A stretch of DNA of 64,000 nt. It comes from a virus. The translations under genes and the position numbers were made by a program. Location: the IMG/VR virus record IMGVR_UViG_3300045988_144754. The stretch is one strand, 5' to 3'. Below are positions 216-41,392 of the stretch, piece by piece (within the stretch, counting starts at the first letter, position 1; the number at the start of each line of letters is the position of its first letter). The notes under the pieces are model-generated. The model saw nothing but the letters and a program-made list of their open reading frames with translations. It was not told the DNA's origin and ran no database searches.

Positions 216-2531
216 TTATATGTTACTATTAATAGTCTTTGTATCTGATACGCACACACTACATCCGAATTGTGCCTGTCTGTCTACGTCGTCACGTGTT
301 ATAAGACAGTTCCGGCCAATCCCCTCATGCAGCTTATTCCATACAGCATCATCTTCGGCATCAGCCGATTGTCGCCACCACGACCATGAGCTGTTGCCCA
401 CGGTGTCGCTTATGTCCTCGCCATTGCGTAGCAGCGTTGCCTTCAGCGTCATTTCGCCCGAACCGTTAATCATCACCGTGCCCGTATCGCTCGTTATCAT
501 TATCTGATAAGCCACGCCGTCCTCGCCCTTGTCTCCCTTCTCGCCTTTGCTTCCAGATAGAACTTTTTTCCATTGTGTCGAGCCGTCAGAAGGCTCACCT
601 GTTACGTCCTCCTCTGAATTGGCAACACACACCCAAACGGCATTATTGTGATTTACTTGGTCGTTCTTATGATAGGTATTTCCTTCTACCCAGTCACCTC
701 TATAATTGATGATATTAATAGTACTGCCGTCATCCGAAATCAATTCAAAGTATGAGGAATTGATTTTCGTTCCACCCTTCGGTGAAGTCTCGAATACCGA
801 CAGAGATACTTCTTTGTTCTCGCCATTTACGCTTTTTGTGATAGTATGCTTGTACTCAGAGATATTAGCATAGCAAGCGATACGAGGAGCATAGTCGCCA
901 GTTGTCTCAAGGATAATCACGTTCTGCCTGTCCGTCTTGTCGTACTCAAGATTGCCATTACGATGTCTGTTGCCGTCCAGCACGATTGTGTCGCCCTCAG
1001 CAGGGTCTCCCTTTATCTCAACAGGCGCATTCTTCTCTGTATATCCGTCTAAGCCTTCGGAATGCTTGCCAACGACAATCCAAGCAAACGCCTGACCATC
1101 GTACAATTCCACCTGTTCTTCTCTCGTCTGCTCCTTACCAGCTTCGTCAAGATAAGTCTCCGTTTTAGTGCCGTATATCTTCTCATTTTGCGTAGAAACG
1201 CCACCATCAGGAATAGTACGCCAGTAACTCTTATTACTTGTATCACTATATGCTCCACCAGCCACAATCTCGCCAATAGTCTGACAGCGCACTTGGTCGC
1301 CCTCCTGCCAGTAGTTCATCGTGGCAGTAGTTCCGTTGTCAGCTAAGAGATAGCATTTCCAGCCAGCGCATTCTGCATCATCCGCAGTTGTTTCTACCCA
1401 AGATATAACACCGTCAGCAGATACCGATTCCTTGACAGGCACAACTTTGATAAGCTTGCTACCAGCTCCAGATAAACAGATGTTGCCTCCAGAATAAGAC
1501 AGCTTGCGTACATCTAATTCGTGGAATATCGCCTTGCCCCAGATGGTGAGGTTCGTAACGAAGGCGTGATATTTTCCGTTATCCTTCTTAACAGCGAAAC
1601 CCTGCTCTGCTTCGTTGTCGTAGTCGATGGACTGTAACGACTCAAAGATGGCACGTCCTGCCTCGTCTATCAACGCTCCTCCCTTACCAAAGTAAGCACC
1701 TCTGTTCAGCTTTACTAAAGCCTCGCTCACCAGTCCTTTGATAAAGGTAATCATGCCGTTTACCGTGTCATCATTCTTTTTGGATAAGAAATGGCGTACA
1801 CCAAACTGCCCAAGGAACTCAGGAGTAACCACTTTGTTGGCTGACGTATCATCGGTGTTTTCTGTCGCTACGCCAACGATTTTATGTCCATTCAAGAAAA
1901 GGGTGGCGATAGTGGCTGTCGCTGCCTTGAGCGTAGTAAATGCTGCCACAGAGATGGTCTTCAGGAACTTGATGGTGTCGTGTACTGACTCATATCTCCA
2001 CCACTGACCCTCGCCGCCGGAAGCTATCGCTTCGTCGGTGGCAAGAGAACCGTATTCCACAGTGAGAGTCCACTCACGATACTTTTCTATGATGTCCTGA
2101 TCGTTCTCATCCTTACCTACATTTTTGGTCAGGACCTCAGAGATTTCTCCTTGCAGATACACATAGTAATAGTCCTCGTTGCCCACCTGCTTGTCCGGAG
2201 ATGCAATAGACTTACCGTAGATGTCAATGCGCTCGCTGGGGAATACCACCATTGCCGTACCGTTGACGCCATTGCTGACGCGCGGAATGGCTACGTAAAC
2301 ATACTTAGCCTTTGCATCAGGAAAGAGAGAGGGATAAGCCACTAACGGCCAACGCTGATAGTTGTGCCCGGCATCGTAGCCCAGACCCTCAATGTCCTGC
2401 ATATAGCATAGAATAGAAGCACCACTCGCCACGCTACACTGGATGTAGTTAGGCTCACCCATTGCGTTGAGTTGGATATAGAGCGCACTGCTCGAAATCC
2501 AATAATTCGTAAGTTTGACTTCTGTTGCCAT
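216..2531 (-). CDS. tail fibre / receptor-binding protein with a collagen-like Gly-X-Y stretch
   Basis: 771-aa ORF with GSKGEKGDKGEDG near the C-terminus, which is typical of phage fibre proteins. It is the last gene of the minus-strand structural operon in the window. Confidence 0.55.
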   Translation of the reverse strand: MATEVKLTNYWISSSALYIQLNAMGEPNYIQCSVASGASILCYMQDIEGLGYDAGHNYQRWPLVAYPSLFPDAKAKYVYVAIPRVSNGVNGTAMVVFPSERIDIYGKSIASPDKQVGNEDYYYVYLQGEISEVLTKNVGKDENDQDIIEKYREWTLTVEYGSLATDEAIASGGEGQWWRYESVHDTIKFLKTISVAAFTTLKAATATIATLFLNGHKIVGVATENTDDTSANKVVTPEFLGQFGVRHFLSKKNDDTVNGMITFIKGLVSEALVKLNRGAYFGKGGALIDEAGRAIFESLQSIDYDNEAEQGFAVKKDNGKYHAFVTNLTIWGKAIFHELDVRKLSYSGGNICLSGAGSKLIKVVPVKESVSADGVISWVETTADDAECAGWKCYLLADNGTTATMNYWQEGDQVRCQTIGEIVAGGAYSDTSNKSYWRTIPDGGVSTQNEKIYGTKTETYLDEAGKEQTREEQVELYDGQAFAWIVVGKHSEGLDGYTEKNAPVEIKGDPAEGDTIVLDGNRHRNGNLEYDKTDRQNVIILETTGDYAPRIACYANISEYKHTITKSVNGENKEVSLSVFETSPKGGTKINSSYFELISDDGSTINIINYRGDWVEGNTYHKNDQVNHNNAVWVCVANSEEDVTGEPSDGSTQWKKVLSGSKGEKGDKGEDGVAYQIMITSDTGTVMINGSGEMTLKATLLRNGEDISDTVGNSSWSWWRQSADAEDDAVWNKLHEGIGRNCLITRDDVDRQAQFGCSVCVSDTKTINSNI

Positions 2532-2697: not shown

Positions 2698-3750
2698 TCA
2701 AAGTAAAAGCGAACCATTAATATCGATCACTACTTTAAACGACAAAGCATACATGTTGGTGTTGGTGTCATCCTGGATAGTGGTCTCGTCTTCCAAAAGA
2801 ATGGTGCATGGAATCCAAATGCCGTGCGATAGAATCCATGCGTGTTCGCTCATGGCAAACTCGTGCAGATACCAGTCGAGCCAACTCTCGTCGAGCGGGT
2901 CAGTAGTGAGATTCCAAGTTTCCTGATCATTCTGCTTCTTGACCGACGCACGAGAGAAGGAGTTAAAAGTCTCCTGCTTTGCCACAATATACGATTCTGT
3001 TGTAAGCGCCATCTTACGGCTGTAGGATTTCGGCAGACTGACACTCTCAAGTACACCAAACAGATTGATGAAGCGTATGGTGTAACGGTTGCTCGCCTCT
3101 GTAGCAGGAAGCGCATAGAGTTGGTGAGTACCGACGGTCTGCAGTCCTTCCTGCGTAATCTCCTTAGAGACAGACGTGGGAGGAACCAGGGTCGGACTGT
3201 TACTGAGCAGTTGTTCCGTCTCGTAGGGTGTAGTATAAATAAAGGTGTCACCCACAACGACGGGTTGCGGCAAAGTGTTCGGCTTTCGGGTGAAAGAAAT
3301 GACTCCCTTACTGGGTCCAGACTGAAGGCGCACCATATCAGAGAAAGCACCCGCAATGCAGCGAAGGTTCGTGTTGCCGGTTTCGTCGGGCTCTTGAGGA
3401 TAAAACACCTCGCCTACATTGGTAAATATCTCACCATTGTTATCCATATATTCATCGTAGGCATGGACGTACCAGCTCACGAAAGGATAGGTTGTCGGCT
3501 CGGGAGTATATTTATAGGAGTCGAGTGCCGCACGCAAAGCTGACGATACATCAAGCGATACATCAGTGCCCTCTTTGGTGACGGGTTCATTGAGTTTTAT
3601 GACATCATAGCTGCCGTCATTGTCGAACACGACCTCTACGACGACACGATGAAAAGAAGGCGTATTCTCAAAAGCTGACGGAGAGATGGTAAAAGTAATC
3701 GGGTTGCCAGCAAGGATTGAACCAGATGTAAGTAAAATTTTCTGTGCCAT
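2698..3750 (-). CDS. hypothetical tail-associated protein
   Basis: 350-aa ORF between the ACP gene and the tail-fibre gene, same strand, compact spacing. Confidence 0.45.
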   Translation of the reverse strand: MAQKILLTSGSILAGNPITFTISPSAFENTPSFHRVVVEVVFDNDGSYDVIKLNEPVTKEGTDVSLDVSSALRAALDSYKYTPEPTTYPFVSWYVHAYDEYMDNNGEIFTNVGEVFYPQEPDETGNTNLRCIAGAFSDMVRLQSGPSKGVISFTRKPNTLPQPVVVGDTFIYTTPYETEQLLSNSPTLVPPTSVSKEITQEGLQTVGTHQLYALPATEASNRYTIRFINLFGVLESVSLPKSYSRKMALTTESYIVAKQETFNSFSRASVKKQNDQETWNLTTDPLDESWLDWYLHEFAMSEHAWILSHGIWIPCTILLEDETTIQDDTNTNMYALSFKVVIDINGSLLL

Positions 3751-3813
3751 ATCTATAGATAAAACAGGAGATGAATGTATGTGCTGAGATTTTTCTTGGG
3801 GCTACGAAAGTCG

Positions 3814-4062
3814 CTAAGACATTTTTTTCTCTACGATAGCTGTCACATCAGACACAAGTTGTAAGTCTTTTGCCTCTTCGGGCGAAATCTTGATATGGAA
3901 CATGGTTTCGGTCTGAAGAACGAGATCGAGAAAGTCGATAGACTCAAGAGCGAGATCATCACGCAGGTTGGAGCTGTCGGTCACTTCTGCTGTCGATGCC
4001 CAAGGTGTGCGCAGGCCTTCAACTATATTGAACACCCGCTGGCGAATATCTTCTTTGTTCAT
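3814..4062 (-). CDS. acpP: acyl carrier protein
   Basis: 82 aa. The motif DDLALESIDFLDLVL matches the ACP phosphopantetheine-attachment region (DLGADSLDTVELVM). Its start overlaps the KAS stop (ATGA). Confidence 0.7.
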   Translation of the reverse strand: MNKEDIRQRVFNIVEGLRTPWASTAEVTDSSNLRDDLALESIDFLDLVLQTETMFHIKISPEEAKDLQLVSDVTAIVEKKMS

Positions 4063-5273
4063 AATGATTGGAATTTAGAAATGATGAATGATGAATTGGT
4101 GCCTCCGAAGCCAAAGGCATTACAAAGAATATGGTGTGATAAGTACTCGCGTGACTGCATGACGAGATTGAGCTGTGGAAAAGCATTCTCGGCTGTGGTA
4201 GCCGCACCGAAGATAGTGTCTGTGTTGAGCATCATGGCGGCTTGAACGGCCTGCGATACACCAGCCATCCAGCACTCGTGACCCGTCATACCCTTGGTGG
4301 CTACGATATAAGGGCTCTCGGGGAACACCTTTCCGATGGCTTCTGCCTCTGCAGCATCGCCCTGCTCCGTACCTGTGGCATGGGCGAGGAGTACATCTAT
4401 CATTCCGGCATCGAGTCCAGCCGACTCTATGGCCTTAATCATTGCCACCTCTTCCTGATAAGCATCCGGGGTACAGATGCTTGTGCCGTTAGTGGAAAAG
4501 CCGTAGCCTGAAAGTTCTGCCACGGGCGAGACTTCATAATCCTCGAAACGCAAGCTGTCGGAAGGCTCAAGAATAACACAGGCTGCACCACCCGAAGGAG
4601 CAAGACCATTGCGGGCTTTGCCGAAAGGCTGCACCTTGTCGGGCGAGAAAACGCCCATGGCATCAAACGACAGCATGGAGAAGGGACCAGTCTCCTGTGC
4701 TCCAACGACAATCACCATGTCGGTTTGGCGCGCATCAAGAAGCATCTTGGCAAGACCGATGGCATGACCTCCTCCGGCACAAGCCCCGCTGACGGTAAGC
4801 GAGAGTCCTTTCAGTCCGTAGATAGAGGCGAGGCTCATGCTGACGGTGGAATTGAGTGTGCGGAACACTGCACCTGCCCCTAAACGTCGGGTGTCGCGCT
4901 GTGTAATGGCAGTGGTCATTGCCTGATAGTTGTCTCCCGCCGTAGAGTCGTTGCTGACGATGACCGATACATTGTGAGACTGCAAGAACTCGGGAAGAAT
5001 ATTGGCTTCCACCAGAGCCTCGTTGACGGCAGATAAGGAATATAGGGTCGGTTCGGAAAGACATTGCCGTTGACCCCTGGTGAGTTTTGAAAACTTCCAA
5101 GGGTTCGGATCATTTATCTTTCCGCACAGGTCGGACTGATAACCTTTCTCGCTGCGCGCGGGGTCGTGGTGCAGACCGCACTCTCCATACGCCAGCTTCT
5201 GTGCGACGGAAAAGGTATCGTTGCCAAGACTGGAAACAATACCTGTGCCTGTGATTAATATTTTTCTATCCAT
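4059..5273 (-). CDS. beta-ketoacyl-ACP synthase (FabF/FabB-like KAS)
   Basis: Active-site region GACAGGGHAIG, His motifs HATGTEQGD and KGMTGHECWMAG, and C-terminal NAFGFGGTNSSFII all match KAS I/II. I trimmed the start to the internal Met (MDRKILITGTGIVSSLGN), because the upstream extension overlaps the preceding gene. Confidence 0.8.
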   Translation of the reverse strand: MDRKILITGTGIVSSLGNDTFSVAQKLAYGECGLHHDPARSEKGYQSDLCGKINDPNPWKFSKLTRGQRQCLSEPTLYSLSAVNEALVEANILPEFLQSHNVSVIVSNDSTAGDNYQAMTTAITQRDTRRLGAGAVFRTLNSTVSMSLASIYGLKGLSLTVSGACAGGGHAIGLAKMLLDARQTDMVIVVGAQETGPFSMLSFDAMGVFSPDKVQPFGKARNGLAPSGGAACVILEPSDSLRFEDYEVSPVAELSGYGFSTNGTSICTPDAYQEEVAMIKAIESAGLDAGMIDVLLAHATGTEQGDAAEAEAIGKVFPESPYIVATKGMTGHECWMAGVSQAVQAAMMLNTDTIFGAATTAENAFPQLNLVMQSREYLSHHILCNAFGFGGTNSSFIISKFQSL

Positions 5274-5302
5274 GATTATGTTTGTTTGATTAAAGAATAC
5301 TC

Positions 5303-8116
5303 TTACAAGGCATAGACGGTCAGTTCTACCTCTCCAATGCCTTCCTTGGCCGTGATAGTTGTATTCACCTTGTCGATAAGACATTTCACACCTCCGATGT
5401 TCCACCACGTCTTCCAGTGGTTAGGTATGTCGGCTATCTGTGCGACAGAAGCCGAACAGCGGATGATGTACTTCTTGCGGTTAAGCAGGAAATAGGCGTA
5501 GGGCAGAATGAAGGTATCGAAAAGACCGCGTGAGCGTATCTTGGTTATCACATTGCCGTTAGTGTCCACCTCGTCGGGGGCGCAGAGTGAAACATCCTTA
5601 TATTCAGGCTTACTGAGCCATGACGGCTCTTTGAAAGCACGTATCTTGAGCGAGAAACGTTCACCTTTGCCTCTGCCTTCCTGAATACCATTATAGTCGA
5701 AGACATTGCCCATCATGTCAATAGAGTCGCAAGCAAGAGCATATTCGCCTGCTGCCGTGCGCCACTTGGAAGTACCGAAGTGGTCGTAGTTATAGTCATA
5801 GGGCTCTGTAGTTGCATTCGTACCGCCGCCTCGCATCATGGCCAAGGCAAAGCCCCATCGTGAATCGTCTTGAAGAGGCGAGTTGCCGTCTTCGGTGTTT
5901 GACGGGTCGTAACTTTCGACGAGTTTCAGAGACTGCTGCATGTAGAAATCGCAGAAAGGCGAGGAGATGGTCTGGTTGATGATTTGCTCGACAAACTCAT
6001 GCTCCATGTCCTCATCGACATAGGCGCAGAGGATAGGCTGTCCTTCCTTGATAACGACACCATAGGTTGTTGTCTTTGAATCGTCATAGTACTTTGCCGT
6101 ATGAGAGCCGTAAGCAGCCTCTATCTCCTTGAAATAGTTGACATCATTGAACGGCACGGGGGTGAAGTCGATGGTGATGTCGTGGATGAAGTCTTCATTC
6201 TCCTCGCTGCAATCGCCATACTCCACACCCTTGTACTGGCCTACCTCGAAAAGTACAGGTTTGAGGTCGGCTGTAGTAGTGGCGTCGCCATTCACCTTCA
6301 CGCGATAGGCATTGCCCGTCTTCGGGTCGATGTAGCATCTTTTATCGCCAGAACTTAAATTATGAAAGAAGTCAACGTAATCTCGATCGTAAACCGTTTC
6401 GTTGTCTCCACTTCCCGGTTCGGGATAGTCGATATAGTCGTAGTCGGTAGCATAGCCCATATTTTTATTCTTGCGGCTGTCCTTGACGTTCTGCTGCTGA
6501 TCCTTGGCATCGCTCTCTTCGGAGTATCGCATACGTACACCCGTTATCTTCTCGCTGACGGGAATGATAGAATGAATGTCTGCGCGGAACGTGAGTGCTG
6601 GCTGTCCACTCTCGCGAAGCACGTCACGGATGAGGTAGGCCGTGACTTTCTTTTGCTCATAGTCGTAGGAGAACTTGATGCCAAAGGCGCTCTCCAAAGA
6701 TGAGATAATCGTGCTGACACTCTCATCAGGAAAGTTGTCGCTGTTGGCCACCATATAGAGCACGTTGGCCTGCACGTTGAACTTAGAGATTTGCGCCTCG
6801 ATGCTGATACCTGTCACCTTGCCGCCCTCTTTTGTCGTCTCTCCCACCTGTATGTGTTCGGAAGTTCCTTCGTTAGTGGTAAGGGTGAGCTCGTTGACCG
6901 TCTTGTCCTCTGCCTTTACGATGTTGATTTTTCCACCACAACCGCGCGACTCCAACCAGGAGTTGATATGATCTTGCTTCTTGAAATAACCTTCCTTAAT
7001 CTCGCCTTCCTTCTTTTTCTTGGCGATGACTTCGGGGTCGTCCTTCTTGTAGTATGTTCCGTGATGTGGATGCTCTTTGGTATCGTAGGCGCAAACGGTG
7101 GTGAAGAAACAGAGGTGCTTCATATCCTCTATCTGCATCAGTGCCGACTTGTCGAAGGTGACACCCAAGTGAGCAAACAGGCAGTCGAGAAAATAGAGTA
7201 CATAGAAACAAATGCCCGACTGCGGACGGCGTGCGTCCAACACCCAATAGGGATAAAGATCTTCGTTAGTCCACTTGCAATCCTTTGTGCTGATAATGTC
7301 GCTCGATGTGGTGCCATCGTCTGCCAGTCCGTGGTGCTTGTAGCAGATACGGGCATTGCAATAGGCTGCGGGACGGCCTGCGCCATCAGTCTCGCCATAG
7401 GCTGCCGATGTGTTGATATAGTCGCCATTCTTGGCGATGGCGGGCTCGTTGACTGTATTGCCGTTGGGGTAGGATCGTGACGACTTTCTCTTGGCATCGG
7501 CCTTCATGTGTAAAGGAGAAAGAATGTTGGTGGTGTACTCCTGGCACGATGCAGGATAGGAGAAGCCAAGAGCCTGCGGTTCGAGCACTTTACTCACGCT
7601 TACGTGCTCGGCATGAATGGTTCGGGTGACAGTCTCATCATCCTTATGCTTACCTCCCTCCACGAATACACTGACATTTACAACAGGGTCGCTCTCGATG
7701 TCTACCCTTACATTGCCTATCTTCTCGCCGATGATCAATTCATCCTTGATGGGGATGTCACGGCAGTTTAGCGAACCGATGAGGTCGCTGAAACTCTGTC
7801 TGCCTGCATTAATACTCATAGAGAGCGAGTCTTTTATCTCTTCAGCATCCTGCATGACGAGCGTACCGTTGCGGAAGGGCAGTCCGTCGGCATGAATGCG
7901 CGTAGGCAAATGCTCCATGTTGACAGCACGAAACGATGCCCGCACGTCATCGATGTTCTTTACCAGCCATCGGTTGCCGTCGAGCGGAATGGAAAACGGA
8001 TAGGCGAACATCTCGTTGTCATTGAACACAGGGTTCTGGTCCTCTATATCGATAGAGAAATCATCGGGCAGCGACACGGGGCGGTCGTTGATAAGTATGG
8101 TGAGATGTGAGTTCAT
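5303..8116 (-). CDS. large virion structural protein (tail or baseplate candidate)
   Basis: 937-aa ORF in the structural operon upstream of the ACP/KAS pair. No recognisable motif. Confidence 0.45.
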   Translation of the reverse strand: MNSHLTILINDRPVSLPDDFSIDIEDQNPVFNDNEMFAYPFSIPLDGNRWLVKNIDDVRASFRAVNMEHLPTRIHADGLPFRNGTLVMQDAEEIKDSLSMSINAGRQSFSDLIGSLNCRDIPIKDELIIGEKIGNVRVDIESDPVVNVSVFVEGGKHKDDETVTRTIHAEHVSVSKVLEPQALGFSYPASCQEYTTNILSPLHMKADAKRKSSRSYPNGNTVNEPAIAKNGDYINTSAAYGETDGAGRPAAYCNARICYKHHGLADDGTTSSDIISTKDCKWTNEDLYPYWVLDARRPQSGICFYVLYFLDCLFAHLGVTFDKSALMQIEDMKHLCFFTTVCAYDTKEHPHHGTYYKKDDPEVIAKKKKEGEIKEGYFKKQDHINSWLESRGCGGKINIVKAEDKTVNELTLTTNEGTSEHIQVGETTKEGGKVTGISIEAQISKFNVQANVLYMVANSDNFPDESVSTIISSLESAFGIKFSYDYEQKKVTAYLIRDVLRESGQPALTFRADIHSIIPVSEKITGVRMRYSEESDAKDQQQNVKDSRKNKNMGYATDYDYIDYPEPGSGDNETVYDRDYVDFFHNLSSGDKRCYIDPKTGNAYRVKVNGDATTTADLKPVLFEVGQYKGVEYGDCSEENEDFIHDITIDFTPVPFNDVNYFKEIEAAYGSHTAKYYDDSKTTTYGVVIKEGQPILCAYVDEDMEHEFVEQIINQTISSPFCDFYMQQSLKLVESYDPSNTEDGNSPLQDDSRWGFALAMMRGGGTNATTEPYDYNYDHFGTSKWRTAAGEYALACDSIDMMGNVFDYNGIQEGRGKGERFSLKIRAFKEPSWLSKPEYKDVSLCAPDEVDTNGNVITKIRSRGLFDTFILPYAYFLLNRKKYIIRCSASVAQIADIPNHWKTWWNIGGVKCLIDKVNTTITAKEGIGEVELTVYAL

Positions 8117-11100: not shown

Positions 11101-12894
11101 CTACTCCTGTCCCTGCTTCGTGACGCCTGTCTTCGAGTTGTCGAGGGTGGTAAGCACCTCACGGTCTATCTGCCATTCGAGGTGTGGGTCCCATTCATTG
11201 ATTTCGTCGGTTACCTCCAAGGCGCGGAGCATGAGCTGCTGCAATGGGGCAAACTGTATCTGCTTGACGAGGAAACGCTCGCGGAGGTCAGTGCCGCCCG
11301 ATGAGGTTGCGTCGCCTGGGGTGTTGCCAATGAGCTTGGAGTCGAGACCCATGGCGAAGAAGATGATGCTTGTGATTTCCTGCAGCTCGGTCTTCTCGGC
11401 TTGCGCTTGCGAGTTGGCCTTGCTCTCTATCTCCACAATCTCCCACGCCTTGTGCTCCTTGCCGTCGGTGCCGTTGAACACGGCAGAGATGAGCGCCTGA
11501 CCTGCATTGTCGGGATTGGAGAGCCACGTGTTGATGTCGCTGAACACCTCCTGCTGAAGCTGCGCCATGGTCTTGGTCTTCTTGTCGCCCTGCTGGGTGT
11601 AGAGGTTCTTGAGATATTCCTGGTGAATGTAGATGACGCGACCGATGATGTTGGAGTTGCGCTTACGGGTGAGTCGGTCGTCGACGATGGTGAAGGCATA
11701 CTCGTAGATGCTTCCGGCAAAGATGCTGTGCCAAAGGGCATCGGCATAGTAGGGACCGCCGTAGTCGCGTGGCGACATGATGAAACGGGTGGGGCGGTCC
11801 TTGCGGCTTACCCGCTGCTGACGGGCACGGCGCACGGCGGCCTGGAGGTCTTTCACTGCCGACACGGTGGGAAGATAGGGCACGGCGGCGATGCTCTTGT
11901 CGAGGTCGGCGAACTGAGCGGTGCGGTCTTGCGTGGGGTCGAGCCACTGGTTTGACAAGTAGGCATAGTTGATGCGATAGTTGGTGTCCTGTCGCTCCAG
12001 TCGGGTGGTGAAGATGCTGCGGTGTTTCAGTCCCACTACCTTGGGTGTCCACTGGCTTGTGGGCACGGGTTTGCCTTCGTCGGAGAGTTGTCGCTGGTTG
12101 AGTTGCAGCTCGACGAAGCATTGCGACATGAGCGCCATGTCGCCCGCCATGTTGAGGAAGGTCTGCATCAGGTCGTTGTCCTTCATGAATTTCTTCACCT
12201 CGCGGTTGGTCTGTTCCCACTTGGCGAGGGCGTCCTTCAGGGCTTTCATCTCGTCGCTGTCCTTGGGCTGGCCTTCGGTCTGCTGACTGACGGAATGCAG
12301 AGGGTCGTCGGGGTCGCCGCTGATGCCGTTCTGCTGTTGCTCCTGAAGGTCGGCTTTCTCCTGTGCCTTGAGGTCGGCTATCTGTCCGCGGAGCAGTGTG
12401 CCGGCCGATGCGTAGGGGATGTATTTCTCGGTGATGTTGCCGCCTACGTACTGGGTGTAGTGGTACTTGGGCGAGGGTCCGTGGCCTACGAGTATCTTCT
12501 TGATGAAGTCGACACCGGCTGCGGTGAAGGGCGACATTCGTGAGAGAATCCAGACGAGGTTGGGCAGTCGGTTGCCCACGCCCCATTCCATGTAGCCCAG
12601 TCCGGGTGTTCCCACGCCGTTGGGCTTGGCCTTGTTCTCGCCGCCGCTGGAGGCGAAGATGGTGGAAATCTGTCGTCGTGCTCCCGAAGAGGTGGTCGAG
12701 CTGCCCTGCGCTGTCATGCCGGCTGTCTCGAAGAGCATGGAGCGGACGTAATCGTTCCATGAAAAGACTTGAGCGCCGCTGTTGGGATTGATGAAAGCAG
12801 AGGGCGACACGGCCACATATCCATCGCGCTTCAGTTCCTCACTACGATCTTGGAACTGCTGTAAGTTGGTAACTCTGTTCTTGTTGCGTGACAT
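11101..12894 (-). CDS. hypothetical virion protein (portal-sized; assignment uncertain)
   Basis: 597-aa ORF. Preceded by a TAnnTTTG promoter-like box in the duplicated module at 12925..13010. Confidence 0.4.
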   Translation of the reverse strand: MSRNKNRVTNLQQFQDRSEELKRDGYVAVSPSAFINPNSGAQVFSWNDYVRSMLFETAGMTAQGSSTTSSGARRQISTIFASSGGENKAKPNGVGTPGLGYMEWGVGNRLPNLVWILSRMSPFTAAGVDFIKKILVGHGPSPKYHYTQYVGGNITEKYIPYASAGTLLRGQIADLKAQEKADLQEQQQNGISGDPDDPLHSVSQQTEGQPKDSDEMKALKDALAKWEQTNREVKKFMKDNDLMQTFLNMAGDMALMSQCFVELQLNQRQLSDEGKPVPTSQWTPKVVGLKHRSIFTTRLERQDTNYRINYAYLSNQWLDPTQDRTAQFADLDKSIAAVPYLPTVSAVKDLQAAVRRARQQRVSRKDRPTRFIMSPRDYGGPYYADALWHSIFAGSIYEYAFTIVDDRLTRKRNSNIIGRVIYIHQEYLKNLYTQQGDKKTKTMAQLQQEVFSDINTWLSNPDNAGQALISAVFNGTDGKEHKAWEIVEIESKANSQAQAEKTELQEITSIIFFAMGLDSKLIGNTPGDATSSGGTDLRERFLVKQIQFAPLQQLMLRALEVTDEINEWDPHLEWQIDREVLTTLDNSKTGVTKQGQE

Positions 12895-13246: not shown

Positions 13247-14065
13247 CTATCGTTTGATATTCCACATGTGCTCTGCAGGACCAACGAGCACGTCTATGTT
13301 TGCGCCCTGCTTCAGAGCCACCGTTTCCACCCATTTAAGCTGAATAAACTGCTGCGGGCTAAGATTCATCTCGCTCATATACGCCTTATCTGCCACAGCC
13401 TTTTGGCGCTCGGCCTTCTCGCGAGCCACCTGAACCTCATATTCACGTTCCTGCGTCTGCTTGGCCTGTACCATCTTTGCCGTTCGGTTCATTTCGGCAA
13501 GCTGCTCCTTGTTGGGTGTTGCCTTGCCGATGATAACGTCCTTGATGATGACGGGCATCGGCTTGTGCTTGGAGAGGGCAGCCACGTAATCCTGCATCTG
13601 CTTCAGAATCTTCTTGTCGATGGTGCTCAATACCTGACGGTTGGACATCAAGTCGAACGGACTGTACTGTGAGATATGGTCTCTGACAAGATTACAGAAA
13701 TAGTTGTAGAGGTTGGTGTCAAACCAGTCGCGTCCATAGTTCTGCAACAGCACGGGCGACTTGCCTTGCTCCACCTGAGTGACTATGACAGAATGGAAGT
13801 CGAGCGGCGTGTTATCGTCGGAGAAGATGTCGTCAAGAACAACCTCGTGGCGTACCGGAACAATCTTGAATGTTTCGGCATGAGTACTCAGGGCACACCA
13901 TGTCAAGCCACTCTGTACTGGGTCGTTGTCAACACCTCCGTGTCCGAAGAACCATGGTTTCTTCACCAACACGGTTTCCTCGTCGGCATCGGGCGACACA
14001 AAACGGCACGAGGATAACATCACTACTGCGACAAGCGCAAAAAGAATTGAAAATAATTTTTTCAT
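13247..14065 (-). CDS. lipoprotein
   Basis: Start trimmed to MKKLFSILFALVAVVMLSSC. This is a signal peptide with an LSSC lipobox. Confidence 0.55.
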   Translation of the reverse strand: MKKLFSILFALVAVVMLSSCRFVSPDADEETVLVKKPWFFGHGGVDNDPVQSGLTWCALSTHAETFKIVPVRHEVVLDDIFSDDNTPLDFHSVIVTQVEQGKSPVLLQNYGRDWFDTNLYNYFCNLVRDHISQYSPFDLMSNRQVLSTIDKKILKQMQDYVAALSKHKPMPVIIKDVIIGKATPNKEQLAEMNRTAKMVQAKQTQEREYEVQVAREKAERQKAVADKAYMSEMNLSPQQFIQLKWVETVALKQGANIDVLVGPAEHMWNIKR

Positions 14066-14135
14066 AATTGTTTTTTGTTTATATTGATTCATTAAAATCC
14101 TTATATATGACAATCGTACATTACACCCGCTGCCT

Positions 14136-14690
14136 TTACGACTCAATCTCGGGAGGGTTGCCACCAGGCTTCTGCTCGCCGCCACCCGTGGTGCCGGAAT
14201 CGCCTGTGCCGGGAGCTGCGGGAGCATCCGTTGCAGCAGCATTGCCCACTCGCTTGAACGAGCCGTGCTGTGCGAAGGCAGCGTTGAACTTCTTGGAGAA
14301 GTCGATGGCAACACCTGCGGTGAGGTCCTTTGTGGTGAGGTCGGCGGCGGTAATCTCTCGGTTCACGTCAACGTCCTCGCCTGCTGCCTTACGTGCTTCG
14401 AGCTTCGCCTTGAGCTGGCTCTGAGTGAGCGAGCCGCTGACGGTAGGACGTACCGTCATGCCCTCGGCAGACACCTGTACCTTGGTGCCCAGTGCCAACA
14501 GAAGCGGCAGCTTTTTCTCCAACTGCGTCATCACGGCCATTACGTCCGCTGCGCCTACTGTAGAGTCCTGCGCCATGTAGTCGCAAAACTCAGGAAATGA
14601 CATCTGCTGCAAGTCAACGATCTGTGCGCTTGCCAGCTTCTCCTGTGTGAGGTGGTTCACACGAACTGCAATTCTTGTTTTAATTGCCAT
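14136..14690 (-). CDS. HU-like DNA-binding protein (Bacteroidetes type)
   Basis: N-terminus MAIKTRIAVRVNHLTQEKLA...FPEFCDYMAQDSTVGAADVMAVMTQLEKKLPLLLALGTKVQV resembles Bacteroidetes HU-family proteins. Low-complexity Gly/Thr-rich tail. Confidence 0.5.
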   Translation of the reverse strand: MAIKTRIAVRVNHLTQEKLASAQIVDLQQMSFPEFCDYMAQDSTVGAADVMAVMTQLEKKLPLLLALGTKVQVSAEGMTVRPTVSGSLTQSQLKAKLEARKAAGEDVDVNREITAADLTTKDLTAGVAIDFSKKFNAAFAQHGSFKRVGNAAATDAPAAPGTGDSGTTGGGEQKPGGNPPEIES

Positions 14691-14905: not shown

Positions 14906-15647
14906 ACTTGATGCGCTTGCAAGCCTTGTCGTAATACTCCTTGTTGAGCTCGAAGCCGATGAAGTTGCGCTTCTCTTTTATGCAAGCAATGGCGGTGGTG
15001 CCGCTGCCCATGCAGTTGTCTAATATGGTGTCGCCCTCGTTGGAGTAGGTACGGATGAGGTACTGGATGAGAGCGACAGGTTTTTGGGTGGGGTGGAAGC
15101 TGTTGTGAATATCCCTCTGAAATAAGACAATATCGGTTGGATATTTTTCGTCGGTTATAATATCCTTCACTTTGCCATAATTTCCGTAACATCTGTTGGT
15201 TTGCTCTTTCTCTTGCTTTCCTCTGCTGTGATTGCGTTCATGTGGAAGACATTTGCACATTTGTGGATGATAGGTGGGCTGTCCGTCGTAGAAAACGGAA
15301 ATAATCTCCGTTTGCTTTAGAGGCATCTTCTTTGTGTTCAAAAAGCCAGTTGTACGGCATTTATCCCACGTGATATTATAGCGCCACATCTTTTCATTGC
15401 TCATCATCAGTTTTGCCGTGAACATACCCTGTCCGAACAATATTATAGCCGCATTGGGCTTACTGATACGAAGATATTGCTCCCATAAAGAATCAAGTGG
15501 AATAATACTATCCCATCCTCCTCCTTCGCTCTGCTTATTGAGGACACCATACGGCAAATCACACACAATGCAATCCACGCTTCCGTCGGGAATCCTTTTC
15601 ATTCCTTCGAGGCAGTCTTCATTATATATCTTGTTCAGCTCTATCAT
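14877..15647 (-). CDS. DNA methyltransferase, N6-adenine/N4-cytosine (PF01555-like, beta class)
   Basis: CIVCDLPYG (DPPY-type motif IV) near the N-terminus and NCMGSGTTAIA (motif I) near the C-terminus. Paralog of 42701..43450. Confidence 0.8.
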   Translation of the reverse strand: MIELNKIYNEDCLEGMKRIPDGSVDCIVCDLPYGVLNKQSEGGGWDSIIPLDSLWEQYLRISKPNAAIILFGQGMFTAKLMMSNEKMWRYNITWDKCRTTGFLNTKKMPLKQTEIISVFYDGQPTYHPQMCKCLPHERNHSRGKQEKEQTNRCYGNYGKVKDIITDEKYPTDIVLFQRDIHNSFHPTQKPVALIQYLIRTYSNEGDTILDNCMGSGTTAIACIKEKRNFIGFELNKEYYDKACKRIKLEQAQLTLF

Positions 15648-15654
15648 TGTCTTT

Positions 15655-16689
15655 TTACTTTTTCCTTATCTTTTCCATTTCCTCATTCTCCACCGTCAGG
15701 CGTTCCAGGTGCTCCAGGACGAGGGAATAACTCTGGTTGTTCACCTGGTCCTCCGTCAGACCGGCATACTTCTGCATGGTGGCGGTGGTGGCGGTGTATA
15801 TCTCCAAGGGCGTGGAGGGCTTCTGCGACTTGATGGGCTGCACCTTGAACACATGGCGATAACGATGAGCGAGGGTGTGCATCACGCCCGTCCACCAGAA
15901 GAGTATCACCTGCCATGCCGTTTCGGGGAAATCGCGGAAATAGGACTGGTTCGTCTCCCACTGGTTCAACTCATAGTGGAAGTCGTGTTTCACCATGCCC
16001 GTGTTGCTGTCCACATAGTCGGTCGTGCCGTTGAAGATGGTGGCGAGAAACATCGTCCGGGCAGCGTTCACGTTCTTCATCTGCCGCTGCATCTGCTCGT
16101 CGGTGAAAGTGCCGCGCTGCTGCATCTTCAAGAGGCTGTTGCTCAGTCGGGTGTAGGTCTGCATCATGTCGGAGGCGAAGCGATACTGCGCCCACGAAAA
16201 TCCGTCGAGGTCGTTGGCGGGTCCGCTGAACACCTTCTTGCGTCGCCACCATGCGCGGCGTCGCCGGATGACAGGGTAGGGGAAGCGGGTGAGAAAGGCA
16301 CCGTTCTCGTTGTCTATCCAGTCGAGCAAGCCTGCTCCCTGAGCGATGTACTCTGCCGACTTTCGGGCGTCGGTCTTCGCCTTGGGCGTCAGCCAATAGT
16401 TGATCTGCCACAGATACAGCGGAAAGGTGTCGTTGTCCTCGTCGTCCTGCATACGGCAGAGGTAATACTGCTCGCTGATGTCGAGGCGAGAGTCGGGCAG
16501 CGCCACTATCTCCAAGCCCGACAGGGCGAAGAAGATCGCCACCTTCACGTTGCGCATGTCGAAGGGGTGGTATCTGTCCTGCCGCTCCACCTGCTCGCGT
16601 ATCACGTCGGCTATCAGCTCCAGTTGTTCCGTAGTGCAGAGATTCCAATGTCGGGGAAGATGTAAGTCTATTTTTTTTGGATTGTTCAT
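15655..16689 (-). CDS. hypothetical protein
   Basis: 344-aa ORF. Confidence 0.45.
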   Translation of the reverse strand: MNNPKKIDLHLPRHWNLCTTEQLELIADVIREQVERQDRYHPFDMRNVKVAIFFALSGLEIVALPDSRLDISEQYYLCRMQDDEDNDTFPLYLWQINYWLTPKAKTDARKSAEYIAQGAGLLDWIDNENGAFLTRFPYPVIRRRRAWWRRKKVFSGPANDLDGFSWAQYRFASDMMQTYTRLSNSLLKMQQRGTFTDEQMQRQMKNVNAARTMFLATIFNGTTDYVDSNTGMVKHDFHYELNQWETNQSYFRDFPETAWQVILFWWTGVMHTLAHRYRHVFKVQPIKSQKPSTPLEIYTATTATMQKYAGLTEDQVNNQSYSLVLEHLERLTVENEEMEKIRKK

Positions 16690-20376: not shown

Positions 20377-21285
20377 TTATCGCATGGCTTCCTCAAGAGT
20401 TCTAATATAAGGTATGGACTCGTTGCGCACAATATCAAGAAAAAGTTGTGCCGACCGCTTCATCGGCACGTCCTTCATCCAGTGGACATTGCTCATCAGG
20501 TCGTGCTCAAGCCCCACGATGGGACGGACGGTAAGGGTAGGGTGGTTCTTTAGGTACAATTTAGGCATGAAAGTGACACAATGGGATTCTTCCACGATGG
20601 CAAGGTCCTCGTTGGGGTCGCTCACAATACATTTTACATTCAGTTTCATAAAATCGTATTTCAGATATTTCTGAAAGGTATTGAACACCCTTTCGCCTAC
20701 ATCGGGCATAATCACGTTGTGCCTTAACAAATCCTCGTATGACACCTTTTCCAGTCGGGACAAAGGATGGGTGTCCCGCATCATCGCATAGATACGGAAA
20801 GGAATACAGGGCTCAGACTCGATGCCCTCATTCTTGTAGGCAGTGTTCAGAGTAAAGGCGAGGTCGAGGGAGTGGCTTCTCAACAGGTGGTTCAGACTCG
20901 TCGCCTTGGTAAACTCGGCGTTGATTCTTACATTCGGGTATCGTTCCATGAAGATAAGTGCCGCCATCCGAATATAAGGTGCGATAAAAGAGCCTACACC
21001 TATCCTCAGCTCGCCCACAAGGCAGTTGTTGAGCGCGTTGATTTGTTCCTTGCAGTCGTCCGTCTGCTTCAGTATCTCCTTGGCGCGAGGCAAAAGCGCC
21101 TCGCCACTCTCAGTGAGCATAATGCTGTGCGAGGTGCGGATAAGCAACTTGCACCTCAGTTCATCCTCAAGAGCCTTGATGTGTTGACTGATGGCGGACT
21201 GAGTGACACAACAGCGCATGGCTGCAATACTGAACGATAAAGTTTCGGCTACATATACAAATGAGCGCAAATGACGAAGTTCCAT
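20377..21285 (-). CDS. LysR-family transcriptional regulator
   Basis: N-terminal HTH MELRHLRSFVYVAETLSFSIAA...QSAISQHIKALEDELRCKLLIRTSHSIMLTESGEALL is a canonical LysR substrate-binding-type regulator. 302 aa. Confidence 0.8.
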   Translation of the reverse strand: MELRHLRSFVYVAETLSFSIAAMRCCVTQSAISQHIKALEDELRCKLLIRTSHSIMLTESGEALLPRAKEILKQTDDCKEQINALNNCLVGELRIGVGSFIAPYIRMAALIFMERYPNVRINAEFTKATSLNHLLRSHSLDLAFTLNTAYKNEGIESEPCIPFRIYAMMRDTHPLSRLEKVSYEDLLRHNVIMPDVGERVFNTFQKYLKYDFMKLNVKCIVSDPNEDLAIVEESHCVTFMPKLYLKNHPTLTVRPIVGLEHDLMSNVHWMKDVPMKRSAQLFLDIVRNESIPYIRTLEEAMR

Positions 21286-27988: not shown

Positions 27989-28885
27989 TTAAATGTCAAA
28001 CTCATCACAATACTGGCGCATACGCTCGATGATGATGTTGCGTATCTTTTCGCCAATAATCTTTGCATTGGGATGCGGCGTGCCCGTCTTGCCATGGAAG
28101 CGAAGGTCAAGAATATGGCTCCAGTCGGAAAGCGTGTAGGTATATGCCACAACGGTATAGGTGTCGAGAGGCAGAACACCTCGTGCGTCCTGCGGCTTCA
28201 AGCCGGACTTCAGAAGTCGGTTGTAGCCCCACTCACACACTCGACATACAAGGCCATACACAAAGCGCTGCCAACGACTGCCTTCTGCGTGCCAATGCGG
28301 ACGTGCTATCTGCACGCCTCCCTTCTTCTCTAAATTGCAATAGCGTGTACTCTGTTCGGCGATGCTGTTGGGCGACGTGCGGTTGAGCTCACGCGATGTA
28401 CTTATCTGCGTGGTTACTACCATCGTCATGCGGATAATAGAGAATGCCTCCTCACACTCGTACTTCAGTGCCTTCTCGATAAACTCGTCTTCGCTGACAC
28501 CATACTGACTAAGCGCATTCATCATGTCCTCGTGCTCAAGCGCAAACTGAGTATTGGTACTGAACCATACCTTATGATTCTTGGTGGCATAGTTGATGTA
28601 AGGCGATGCCTCCAGATATGCCCAGATGTGGTTAGGAAGACCCCTTTCGTTGGGCATAAAGAAATAGACTGTGCCGTGACGAAACATCGAGCGATGTCCG
28701 CTGTCCCAGAAGTCCTTGCAACGTACCTCGTCACGCGTCTGGATGAAATTTTTCACTTCCTCTTCGGTCAATCCTTCTCCGGGCTGCTTGCCCTTTGCCT
28801 TGTAGCATATTCTGCCCACTCTTGCTATATGTTGTGCAAGAGTAGTCTGCTGCCACCATTCTACTTGTGGTTCGATGAATTTCAT
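27989..28885 (-). CDS. thyX: flavin-dependent thymidylate synthase (ThyX-like)
   Basis: GHRSMFRHG matches the ThyX HxSVxEH motif. RTSPNSIAEQSTRY matches the RHRxxSxxxxSxRY signature. Confidence 0.6.
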   Translation of the reverse strand: MKFIEPQVEWWQQTTLAQHIARVGRICYKAKGKQPGEGLTEEEVKNFIQTRDEVRCKDFWDSGHRSMFRHGTVYFFMPNERGLPNHIWAYLEASPYINYATKNHKVWFSTNTQFALEHEDMMNALSQYGVSEDEFIEKALKYECEEAFSIIRMTMVVTTQISTSRELNRTSPNSIAEQSTRYCNLEKKGGVQIARPHWHAEGSRWQRFVYGLVCRVCEWGYNRLLKSGLKPQDARGVLPLDTYTVVAYTYTLSDWSHILDLRFHGKTGTPHPNAKIIGEKIRNIIIERMRQYCDEFDI

Positions 28886-29600: not shown

Positions 29601-30686
29601 TTAGCCATAGATTTCCTGCATATCCTCCCTCGAAAGTGTTACCTTGGCTCTTTTGCAAAACATGAAAAAAGTATTTGCTCTTACTCTGTCGTATTTTCCG
29701 AATGATTTCCAAGAAGCCACAAAGTCTGATTCACGGTGTCCGTGGTTGGCATCAAAGGGACGGAAACGAGAAACTCGCTTCCACATATCATAGCCTTCAT
29801 TCGAATCGATACTGTATAAAGACATTCCGCATTTAACCCAGTCATCATAGTTTTCCATAATGTCAACAGCATTCTGCTCTACCTTGCGTACAAGAACACG
29901 AGCTTTGCGCAAGATGATGTCGGGTGTATCATTCTCCCAATCACCAGTATAACCCGACCTCTGACCTGACGACGTATTTTCGTAATGCGTAGCGACTTTA
30001 GTTACAGGAATTAGCGATGGCAACACAGCCATATCTTCCAGTCCCTTATACGGCACCACATTTTCATTGATATATATATGTTCGGGATCATCCCATGAGG
30101 CGAAGCGCACACGTCCGATGTTGCTGCAAGCCTTGTCGAGCATGATGCCAATAGCGGCATATTCTTTGAGCAGAGCTTTGAACTGGTCTTTGTGTCTTTC
30201 GGGATAGGCCAGACGAACCAGACCGAAATAACCAGTACCAGAGCAAGACCGCATCATTAATCCTATCTCAGGACGAAAACGGGCAAGCTTAAATATACTT
30301 TCAAAATCAGTTATCTGAAGATTGTCCTGCAGATCAATGTCGATGGCGAGCCAGCCGGTGTGCTGTTTCAGGTGGCTCTCTCGTCGGCTAACCATGACGC
30401 GCTGCCCTGGATGGGTCAGACTGTCATCCTCGTAGAGAGCGAACAAGCCGCTAAGAGTTGCTCCAGGCAAATGCTTCTTGGTATCGATGTACTCGGGCAT
30501 CTTCTTTGCCTTGCTGCCAAATTCCTGACGCATAGCACGAAGGCGCTGCACATACGGCTTCCATCTGTCCGTAAGACAGAACTCGCGGATAGTCATCTGC
30601 TGAATGCACTCACCCGTCTCGCGGTCTACGAAACGACCATAAGCATCTTGGGCAGACTCATAAATAGAGCAAACTTCGTCAAACAT
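29601..30686 (-). CDS. primase-like replication protein (VirE_N / PriCT_2-like)
   Basis: ENYDDWVKCGMSLYS...EGYDMWKRVSRF resembles the primase C-terminal PriCT_2 domain. The N-terminal half resembles the Bacteroides VirE N-domain. Confidence 0.45.
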   Translation of the reverse strand: MFDEVCSIYESAQDAYGRFVDRETGECIQQMTIREFCLTDRWKPYVQRLRAMRQEFGSKAKKMPEYIDTKKHLPGATLSGLFALYEDDSLTHPGQRVMVSRRESHLKQHTGWLAIDIDLQDNLQITDFESIFKLARFRPEIGLMMRSCSGTGYFGLVRLAYPERHKDQFKALLKEYAAIGIMLDKACSNIGRVRFASWDDPEHIYINENVVPYKGLEDMAVLPSLIPVTKVATHYENTSSGQRSGYTGDWENDTPDIILRKARVLVRKVEQNAVDIMENYDDWVKCGMSLYSIDSNEGYDMWKRVSRFRPFDANHGHRESDFVASWKSFGKYDRVRANTFFMFCKRAKVTLSREDMQEIYG

Positions 30687-40540: not shown

Positions 40541-41392
40541 ATGTTAAACGAACAACTGCAGAAAAAGGTAAAACAGTCGATAAAACTCCTGCAGAGTGTG
40601 CAGAAGCGATACGACGGCGAGATAGAGATAGCATACTCGGGCGGTAAGGACTCCGACGTGCTCCTTCAACTGGCGAAAGAGGCCGGCATCAAGTATCGGG
40701 CCATATACAAGAATACGACCATCGACCCGCCAGGCACGTTGGGGCACGTCAGGGAGATGGGAGTGGAGATACTGAGGGCCAAGACTTCCTTCTTTCATCT
40801 CGTGGCGCAGAAAGGATTTCCATCTCGCTTTACTCGTTTCTGTTGTGAAAAACTGAAGGAATATAAGGTGCTCGACAAAAGTATTATCGGCGTGCGCAAG
40901 GCTGAGAGCCGGAAACGAAACGAAATATACAACGAGCCGACAGAGTGCCGATACTACGGAGCGAAGAAAGAGGAAAATCACGTAGAACAGATTTATCCTA
41001 TTCTGGAATGGACCGATGAGGACGTGCGCGACTTCATTATAGACAGAAAGTTGAAACTCGCACCCATTTATTACAATTCGGGGGGGCAAATCGACGTGTC
41101 GAAACGTCTCGGCTGCATGTGCTGCCCTCTCGCATCAAGGCGCAAGCGCATTATCGAGTTTCAGAAATATCCCAAGATAGCAAAGGCGTATCTCCGTGCG
41201 GGGCAACGATTTATGGAAACGCATCCTGACAGCAAGGCGTGCCAGAGGTACGACAACGTTTACGAATGGTTCACCCGCGACGTGTTTTACAGCTCCAATG
41301 CAGATTGGAACAAGGTAAGCACAGGGCTGTTCGGTAAGCCGGACTTCAAGAAGTTCTTGGAGGATAAGTTCGGTATTGACTTGACATTATAA
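40541..41392 (+). CDS. PAPS reductase-family protein (phosphoadenosine phosphosulfate reductase / DndC-like PP-loop ATPase)
   Basis: PP-loop SGGKDS, a RFCCEKLKE motif, and ILEWTDEDVRDFI, the PLxxWTxxDVWxYI signature of the CysH family. Confidence 0.7.
   Translation: MLNEQLQKKVKQSIKLLQSVQKRYDGEIEIAYSGGKDSDVLLQLAKEAGIKYRAIYKNTTIDPPGTLGHVREMGVEILRAKTSFFHLVAQKGFPSRFTRFCCEKLKEYKVLDKSIIGVRKAESRKRNEIYNEPTECRYYGAKKEENHVEQIYPILEWTDEDVRDFIIDRKLKLAPIYYNSGGQIDVSKRLGCMCCPLASRRKRIIEFQKYPKIAKAYLRAGQRFMETHPDSKACQRYDNVYEWFTRDVFYSSNADWNKVSTGLFGKPDFKKFLEDKFGIDLTL

Follow-up and report, generated by a model that had tools for sequence, protein, structure and literature searches.

A mobile ketosynthase and acyl carrier protein cassette in a clade of large human-gut phages

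We have analysed a stretch of 64,000 nt (the window) from the viral record IMGVR_UViG_3300045988_144754. It contains two adjacent genes which code for a ketosynthase (KS) and an acyl carrier protein (ACP). They are a fixed core pair in one clade of uncultured ~100-kb human-gut phages, which is abundant and widespread. At the same time the pair is an accessory and mobile cassette: in a large family of gut phages of ~90-105 kb, some lineages have retained it, while many others lack it. As judged from its sequence, the KS belongs to a clade of ketosynthases which head arylpolyene-like clusters in bacteria. The interpretation to which we give about an even chance is that the cassette is a phage-adapted auxiliary unit, which alters an envelope lipid of the host by means of host enzymes. 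Since the signature of the cluster clade is preserved in the KS, an effect on the arylpolyene-like envelope lipid of the host is favoured.

The original prediction, made by a model from the letters of the window, had described a clear ACP and a complete ketosynthase in this region. Its coordinates and motifs are exact: DLALESIDFLDLV in the ACP, GACAGGGHAIG and GFGGTNSS in the KS are all present. The elements of the cassette are the following.

4059-5273, minus strand: KS, 404 aa, with its ATG at 5273 and its stop at 4059-4061
3814-4062, minus strand: ACP, 82 aa, whose start overlaps the KS stop as ATGA (4059-4062)
4944-4952, minus strand: codons of Asn108-Asp109-Ser110, a clade signature; residues 109-110 align to FabB G106-G107
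4779-4781, minus strand: codon of Cys165, the predicted active site, in the motif VSGACAGGGH; aligns to FabB C163
4380-4382, minus strand: codon of His298, predicted catalytic, in the motif AHATGT; aligns to FabB H298
4278-4295, minus strand: codons of Lys327-His332 (ATKGMTGH), followed by the clade signature E-C-W-M; these residues align to FabB K328 and H333
3940-3942, minus strand: codon of Ser41 of the ACP, the predicted phosphopantetheine attachment site (LESID)

A longer open reading frame (ORF) for the KS, initiated by GTG, was rejected as the start, since it overlaps the preceding gene p937 and is not conserved.

Profile searches with PF00109, PF02801 and PF00550 all gave matches above the cut-off of 20.8 bits. 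The first two are found in the KS (E=2e-26, 93.6 bits and E=2.4e-20, 73.1 bits), which has no PHROG family. Its best solved relative is FabB of Vibrio cholerae (4xox, E=3e-49, residues 3-404). The FabB structures in the PDB range from E=3e-49 to 1e-39, and E. coli FabB matches end-to-end at ~1e-40. On the alignment with the E. coli enzyme all members of the catalytic triad are in place: Cys165 corresponds to C163, His298 to H298 and His332 to H333. Lys327 corresponds to K328 and the gatekeeper Phe389 to F392, while Thr300, Thr302 and Glu309 are likewise retained at catalytic positions of FabB. These residues were counted in 66 phage copies, namely 57 other homologues of the window clade and 9 other phage ketosynthases. 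The triad and Lys327 are invariant in all 66. Phe389 is kept in 65 of them; the only exception has Leu and is one of the nine. The median pairwise ratio of nonsynonymous to synonymous substitution rates (dN/dS) is 0.12, which indicates purifying selection. The claim of a complete ketosynthase with Cys-His-His stands, and the KS is predicted to be a catalytically intact, decarboxylating condensing enzyme of the thiolase fold.

The ACP also turns out to be genuine. It has 22.7 bits with PF00550, it matches phrog_5934 ('acyl carrier protein', E=4e-8) and its best ACP in the PDB has E=2e-8. Ser41 stands at the start of helix II in a D/E-S-[LI] motif; in alignments it falls on the serine of the DSL motif, both in ACPs of solved structure and in AcpP, ApeE and ApeF of E. 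coli, and it is invariant in 56 phage ACPs. The median dN/dS is 0.17, again a sign of purifying selection. The residue before Ser41 stays acidic (Glu). In E. coli ACP the loss of charge in D35N blocks modification by AcpS (bioRxiv 10.1101/2025.01.28.635281); a Glu in this position would be compatible with phosphopantetheinylation.

The family of the KS is a different matter. The original prediction had called it a beta-ketoacyl-ACP synthase (KAS) of type I/II. The KAS part of this name holds, but the type does not. As FabB (KAS I) the KS reaches 192.6 bits, when the equivalog cut-off of NCBIfam NF005935 is 630, and as FabF (KAS II) it reaches 179.4 bits, when the cut-off of TIGR03150 is 493.75. 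We have placed it in a neighbour-joining tree (200 replicates, 400 columns). The reference genes came from E. coli (fabB, fabF, acpP) and from the ape cluster of strain CFT073. Phage and cluster-associated ketosynthases form a single clade with 95% bootstrap, apart from FabB and FabF. Nor is the KS orthologous to ApeO or ApeR: these are its most distant references (distances 2.2-2.3) and they form separate clades of 99% and 96%, respectively, which take in the other ketosynthases of a bacterial locus, L071. A type II polyketide synthase (PKS) heterodimer, formed by a ketosynthase and a chain-length factor (CLF), was also considered and rejected, as neither the window nor the flanks of its relatives contain another KS-like ORF.

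Two motifs are characteristic of this clade. The first is N108-D109-S110, in a place where FabB has S-G-G, FabF has S-G-I and both ApeR and ApeO have S-S-T. Ser110 is aligned to isoleucine I108 of FabF (column 109 counting the start codon), which presumably lines the acyl pocket. The second motif is H332-E-[C/M]-W-M, which replaces the H-x-L-G-A of FabB, FabF, ApeR and ApeO; none of these four proteins has the full clade motifs. D109, E333 and W335 do not vary in any of the 66 phage ketosynthases, of the 80 from Bacteroidales clusters or of the 5 from other clusters. The other positions show few exceptions. S110 is found in 65/66, 80/80 and 4/5 of these groups, and M336 in 66/66 of the phage copies and in 81/85 of the cluster ketosynthases taken together. 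N108 is invariant in the 58 sequences of the window clade and in the 80 Bacteroidales ones; it is also present in six of the nine other phage ketosynthases and in four of the five from other clusters.

The nearest cellular relatives of the KS (the P0123/P0271 family) have 41% identity with it and are found in contigs from gut Bacteroidales. There they open a cluster with a constant order: KS, ACP, ApeP-like and ApeI-like dehydratases, an MMPL exporter, a flavin adenine dinucleotide (FAD) amine-oxidase-like protein, a ketoreductase, LolA and a 4HBT thioesterase. A scan with one genome per species gave more than 560 matching stretches, of which we have analysed the best 80. They come from Prevotella, Prevotellaceae, Bacteroides, Parabacteroides, Phocaeicola, Paludibacteraceae and others, and nearly all of them have the same cluster (loci L068-L151). 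In two genomes which we checked, a GNAT-like gene precedes the KS, so that the cluster has 10 genes (L114:8745-18073 and L126:8847-16998). All other cellular members of the clade that we have examined lie in an arylpolyene-like cluster or beside its FAD oxidase. Thus P0131 belongs to a large cluster with ApeR-like and ApeO-like ketosynthases, P0132 has an arylpolyene-like context and P0125 adjoins the FAD oxidase. The Bacteroidales cluster has no description in the literature searched for the cassette, a search which was not aimed at the cluster itself.

The phage pair resembles the head of the Bacteroidales cluster in its place in the 95% clade, in the order KS-then-ACP, in both signatures and in the triad; furthermore, these bacteria belong to the phylum which is the likely host of the phage. 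The differences are also clear. The identity is ~40% for the KS and 21% for the ACP, and 12 substitutions are specific to the phage. The other eight to nine genes of the cluster (GNAT-like protein, dehydratases, MMPL, FAD oxidase, ketoreductase, LolA and thioesterase) have no counterpart in the window or in the ~96% covered of the genome of a close relative.

When IMG/VR was scanned with the KS, 59 loci were obtained, mostly in contigs of 50-110 kb. In 57 of them (contigs of 5-110 kb) we have found, in full or in part, the same succession of genes as in the window: portal-p367-p358-p222-p937-KS-ACP-p350-fibre. Two more syntenic contigs came from look-ups in ENA/Logan assemblies. In the window every gene of this block is on the minus strand; those that surround the cassette, and its two junctions, are listed here.

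11101-12894, minus strand: portal-like gene, 597 aa, with remote tblastn matches to annotated portal proteins
between the portal-like gene and p937, minus strand: p367 (DUF6712), p358 and p222, in that order
5303-8116, minus strand: p937, 937 aa, a conserved flank of the insertion site, 69-99% identity across the clade
5274-5302, minus strand: upstream junction, a 29-nt spacer between the p937 stop and the KS
3751-3813, minus strand: downstream junction, a 63-nt spacer between the ACP and p350
2698-3750, minus strand: p350, the flank on the opposite side, a probable structural protein of beta-sandwich type
216-2531, minus strand: a protein of 771 aa with a tail-fibre-like C-terminus (phrog_17422, E=1.6e-33; phrog_2929, E=1.5e-11)

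The tail-fibre gene that the original prediction saw downstream is thus present, and so is the packing of the genes on one strand. The overlapping stops and starts which it described are limited to two places, KS/ACP and p222/p937 (8113-8116); gaps separate p937 from the KS and the ACP from p350. A scan for promoters and terminators at the cassette gave nothing above chance; the promoters which it covered were sigma-70-like, and those of Bacteroidota lie outside its coverage.

Across the clade the identity of the KS is 59-99%. Among distant subclades the genes diverge in step: 59-64% for the KS, 54-60% for p350 and 56-68% for p222. The GC content of the cassette, overall and at third codon positions (GC3), is within the range of the neighbouring genes. 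The protein database contains several thousand KS homologues at E<=1e-10, the closest being on ~100-kb phage contigs; a few carry the source names Prevotella, Candidatus Segatella metagenome-assembled genome or 'Bacteriophage sp.'. The window itself has abundant phage genes: a tape-measure protein of 1983 aa, a head-protease-like protein, terminase, primase, ThyX, methylases, a GH108 lysin and a holin. The cassette region has no DNA match among GenBank phages, and the terminase and the portal have remote matches, to Bacteroidota phages and to an uncultured faecal contig. LoVEphage is a poor candidate as a relative: its paper has neither Prevotella nor these genes, and limited GenBank searches gave no match; this was judged without a direct comparison of genomes. 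Nor are the genes mentioned in the Flandersviridae paper.

The mobility of the cassette is apparent when more distant relatives are considered. A scan with p937 detected four (L307, with 49% identity, L312, L322 and L325, with 38%) in which the stop of the p937 homologue is ~15 nt from the start of the p350 homologue; the junction is empty of KS and ACP. Among the closest non-identical ketosynthases, searched in a representative set of 1.8 billion proteins, several belong to different phage-like contigs and have other contexts. In five contigs (L156, L328, L330, L332 and L335) an ACP-KS pair follows the tape-measure gene and precedes primase and ThyX; of these contigs, L156 is short and its end falls within the tape-measure gene. 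In L158 and L327 the ACP-KS pair is placed between a methylase and the primase. L157 has the order ketoreductase-KS-ACP. In L337, a phage of 160 kb, KS-ACP is found among genes of nucleotide metabolism and packaging (dNMP kinase, exonuclease and terminase). A further phage-like contig, L500, also has a related KS. The different contexts share no neighbour gene. All phage ketosynthases are monophyletic, with 89% bootstrap in the neighbour-joining tree.

The junction of tape-measure and primase is usually empty too: a KS is absent there from 79 of the 80 relatives that bear a primase, and none of the 65 among those 79 contigs which lie outside the KS clade of the window was recovered by a KS scan with the invariant peptides TGHECWM and FGFGGTN. 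In the window this junction has no remnant of ACP or KS. The empty p937/p350 site, the presence of at least four other contexts and the single phage KS clade demonstrate that KS-ACP is a mobile accessory cassette. The idea of a moron, advanced in the original prediction, has thus been confirmed. Its position in a structural, tail-fibre operon is incidental: p937 and p350 do not need the cassette, since relatives carry both genes without it.

How could two genes be useful to a phage? We have searched for partner domains in the 58 other ORFs of the window, in 10 ORFs of a close relative that correspond to the window edges (L004 and L066) and in 27 ORFs from the rest of contig 151591 (IMGVR_UViG_3300045988_151591, 94-99% identical to the window), in total ~96% of 100.6 kb. 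In the ORFs covered there is no domain of phosphopantetheinyl transferase, FabD/malonyl transferase, ketoreductase, dehydratase, enoyl reductase, acyltransferase or thioesterase, and host enzymes are therefore required. The source names of the phage proteins correspond to Prevotella/Segatella, a group in which the cluster occurs. In an infected (or lysogenised) cell, the phosphopantetheinyl transferase of the host would activate Ser41 of the phage ACP and host FabD would load it with malonate. Cys165 of the KS would take an acyl or enoyl primer, to be condensed with malonyl-ACP while His298 and His332 carry out the decarboxylation. The resulting 3-ketoacyl-ACP would then be processed by reductases and dehydratases of the host, either from fatty-acid synthesis or from its own arylpolyene-like cluster. 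In this way the phage would control an extra condensing step and a pool of carrier, and the amount or the chain length of an envelope lipid of the host would be shifted.

Several features weigh against this interpretation. The 12 phage-specific substitutions of the KS include CAGGGH for CASGSH beside the active-site Cys, and the protein is strongly diverged (193 vs 373 bits on the FabB model); for both reasons its specificity may have changed. Branching within the 95% clade is weak (38-52%, by neighbour-joining alone), so that the donor may have been one of the Bacteroidales or another cluster-bearing bacterium. The ACP has 15-30% identity to every reference (21% to the cluster ACP and 30% to ApeF) and therefore does not reveal which pathway it serves. 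The Bacteroidales cluster has neither a chain-length factor nor an aryl-activating enzyme, for which reason it is arylpolyene-like but probably makes something else. It is also unusual to see a metabolic gene packed so tightly into what is probably a late structural operon. Finally, it is by inference that we assign host partners, a substrate and a product to the pair, and the same applies to its advantage for the phage, which might be surface remodelling, superinfection exclusion or tolerance of stress.

Another possibility is that the pair acts as an additional FabB/FabF and AcpP, which works with the type II synthase of the host and sustains or shifts the supply of acyl chains for the membrane and lipid A. 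We consider this unlikely, but it has a number of points in its favour. The best matches of the KS among solved structures and in NCBIfam are FabB and FabF. The genes missing from the phage could be supplied by the fatty-acid synthase, which is ubiquitous in hosts, and the L157 phage adds a FabG-like ketoreductase. There is a precedent in predicted prophages of Rhodobacteraceae which have fabG-acpP-fabF (PMC8224337), and a phage ACP is predicted to bind host FabZ (bioRxiv 10.64898/2026.03.01.708874). However the scores of the KS, 193 of 630 and 179 of 494 bits, are far under the FabB and FabF equivalog cut-offs, the tree puts it with ketosynthases of biosynthetic clusters and not with those of E. 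coli, and it has D-S, as the cluster ketosynthases do, in the positions of FabB G106-G107 and FabF I108. The order of the genes is also that of the cluster, KS-then-ACP, as opposed to acpP-then-fabF.

It is less probable still that the two proteins interfere with the host, either by titrating FabD, AcpS or dehydratases or by burning malonyl-ACP, so that the output of host lipid or of the cluster is shut down or ACP-linked signalling is manipulated. Such a role would agree with the fact that the phage has just the two proteins which touch malonyl-ACP and no downstream enzyme, as well as with the substitutions around the active-site Cys and the strong divergence of the sequence. But none of the 66 phage copies departs from the full condensing set, to which the acyl-accepting Cys165 belongs, and purifying selection extends over the whole length, whereas a decoy would not need the Cys. 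In decarboxylase-type ketosynthases (KSQ and CLF proteins) the Cys is normally replaced. The ketoreductase of one lineage also makes sense for real synthesis alone.

The tail-fibre context had led the original prediction to propose that the pair might acylate a component of the virion. The pair would supply an acyl group to a tail, fibre or baseplate protein, or would itself be carried in the virion. In the window clade the cassette does have a conserved gene of what is probably a structural operon on either side, at 29 and 63 nt, and in five other contigs it comes directly after the tape-measure gene. Protein acylation which depends on an ACP exists, as in the case of IacP and the Salmonella translocon (PMC5279801). 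Yet a ketosynthase does not move acyl groups onto proteins and there is no acyltransferase, either in the window or in the ~96% covered of the close relative. The same monophyletic cassette is also found in modules of replication and nucleotide metabolism and near a terminase, with no shared neighbour gene; relatives without it retain p937 and p350, and the model of p350 has no enzyme-like fold. We find this proposal very improbable.

That host DNA was mis-assembled into a phage contig is excluded: many GenBank 'phage' records with KS matches are host fragments, but the identical junctions in 57 independent IMG/VR contigs and in the two ENA/Logan contigs, the joint divergence of cassette and flanks, their matching composition and a best cellular identity of 41%, with no close bacterial copy, leave it practically no probability. 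Among those GenBank records, which are mostly clear host fragments, the single one whose KS is fairly close (40% identity) is MT837464 (L060, 'Bacteriophage sp.', 6.8 kb). It was rejected as a phage: its KS joins those of the Bacteroidales clusters with 100% bootstrap, outside the phage clade, and it is therefore probably a mislabelled bacterial fragment.

A shift of the host envelope lipid thus remains the interpretation that we prefer, and it is useful to compare the cassette with systems which are already known. E. coli FabB and FabF, with AcpP, have the same fold, length and catalytic residues as the phage KS. They differ from it by the sub-cut-off scores, the separate branch, other residues aligned to the pocket, another motif after the second catalytic His and the reversed order of acpP-fabF. 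The ape cluster of E. coli CFT073 has ApeO-ApeC (a KS with its chain-length factor), ApeR and ApeE/ApeF, and the logic of its pathway is common to the related bacterial clusters, which share with it a type II KS, a dedicated ACP, dehydratases of ApeP/ApeI type, MMPL, LolA and a thioesterase. The phage KS is no orthologue of ApeO or ApeR, and the phage has neither a chain-length-factor partner nor an aryl-activating enzyme. Canonical arylpolyene clusters have a two-KS architecture (PMC8358021). Arylpolyene lipids are described as outer-membrane lipids which affect tolerance to oxidative stress and biofilm formation (PMC13532178, PMC8253772).

Other lipid morons of phages, such as the ACPs of phrog_5934 and the fabG-acpP-fabF of roseobacter prophages (PMC8224337), likewise represent an incomplete pathway and are presumed to depend on host enzymes. 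The present one differs in that the KS is of biosynthetic-cluster type rather than fabF and has no PHROG family. It also differs in being fixed in a large clade of gut phages, in recurring in several lineages and in having an empty site as a control. In the literature on KS and ACP in gut or Prevotella phages we have found nothing specific and no paper which describes this cassette.

The proteins which flank the cassette have few recognisable features. For p937 there is no match in Pfam, PHROG or the PDB, a profile search of PDB sequences included, and no tblastn hit; its AlphaFold2 model is unusable, with a predicted local distance difference test score (pLDDT) of 27. The original prediction had called it a virion protein, an assignment which is at most putative. 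The homologues of p350 are confined to this phage clade. It has no Pfam match, and a profile search against PDB sequences was empty. Its AlphaFold2 model (pLDDT 58) is beta-rich, with weak and non-significant matches to Ig, FN3 and macroglobulin-like folds. Judging from this model, p350 is probably made of beta-sandwich repeats. In the fibre-like protein of 771 aa there is a short stretch of collagen-like G-x-x triplets (GSKGEKGDKGEDG), together with a weak match to CBM_5_12. The N-terminal two-thirds of this protein are highly variable among relatives which are otherwise 94-99% identical (just 63% in L006), which suggests swapping of a receptor-binding module. The PADLOC defence models gave nothing for the KS, the ACP or their neighbours. 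In the window there are no Rfam matches and no tRNAs.

Other genes of the window may be mentioned. A full-length LysR-type regulator at 20377-21285 (minus strand; HTH_1 E=2.5e-20, substrate-binding domain E=4.5e-26, phrog_3736) could be linked to the metabolic cassette. A flotillin-like SPFH/Band_7 protein (phrog_200) is coded at 13247-14242, minus strand, just upstream of the portal gene; in the unrelated contig L157 a Band_7 gene (15496-16281) is also found, 4 kb from ketoreductase-KS-ACP. This may be a coincidence or a membrane-related theme. Contig 151591 has a ParA-like ATPase (AAA_31, E=1.4e-34, L239:918-1790) and, among its small ORFs (L239/L160), several Cro/CI-type helix-turn-helix proteins, while no integrase domain was seen in them. 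This phage may be temperate, or may be maintained in the manner of a phage-plasmid, and the cassette could then be expressed during lysogeny.

The order of the genes is unusual. On the minus strand, from 31581-37532 to 29601-30686, the primase, ThyX and other replication genes come after the tape-measure gene, and the portal/p937/fibre block is found 17 kb beyond this region. It is at this very boundary of tape-measure and primase that sister phages have the ACP-KS pair. Among the accessory or metabolic genes there are a PAPS-reductase-like gene at 40541-41392 (plus strand) and ThyX at 27989-28885 (minus strand). Two methylases are also present, a C5 cytosine methylase at 52780-54096 (minus strand) and an N6/N4 methylase at 42701-43450 (plus strand). 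The window also has a guanylate-kinase match and a weak Radical_SAM match, without an assigned ORF.

Auxiliary genes of phages for photosynthesis, nucleotide metabolism and sulfur metabolism are well known. To our knowledge, condensing enzymes for lipids or polyketides are barely documented in them. As a class, therefore, the auxiliary gene or moron is familiar; what is noteworthy here is a module of specialised-lipid or type II PKS type. It also shows that position in a structural operon is a poor guide to function.

A bolder possibility, which we regard as rather unlikely, is that several ~100-kb phage lineages of Bacteroidales use the cassette as a private polyketide-type module, from an enzyme family which elsewhere heads an outer-membrane polyene-lipid cluster of the host, and that with it they make or re-tailor an envelope lipid foreign to the uninfected host. 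If this were true, the foreign lipid would change the surface of the cell, with a block to superinfection or an altered behaviour of vesicles or under oxidative stress; the least likely outcome would be a lipidated virion or injection component. It would be a case of a phage which manipulates the specialised-lipid (type II PKS) metabolism of bacteria.

The fixation of the cassette in an abundant clade of gut phages and its recurrence in other lineages argue for a real, selectable effect on the envelope of Bacteroidales/Prevotella. Should our interpretation be correct, the cassette would offer a handle on how gut phages remodel the surface lipids of their hosts, and also on the products and roles of arylpolyene-like clusters, which are widespread in gut Bacteroidales but uncharacterised.

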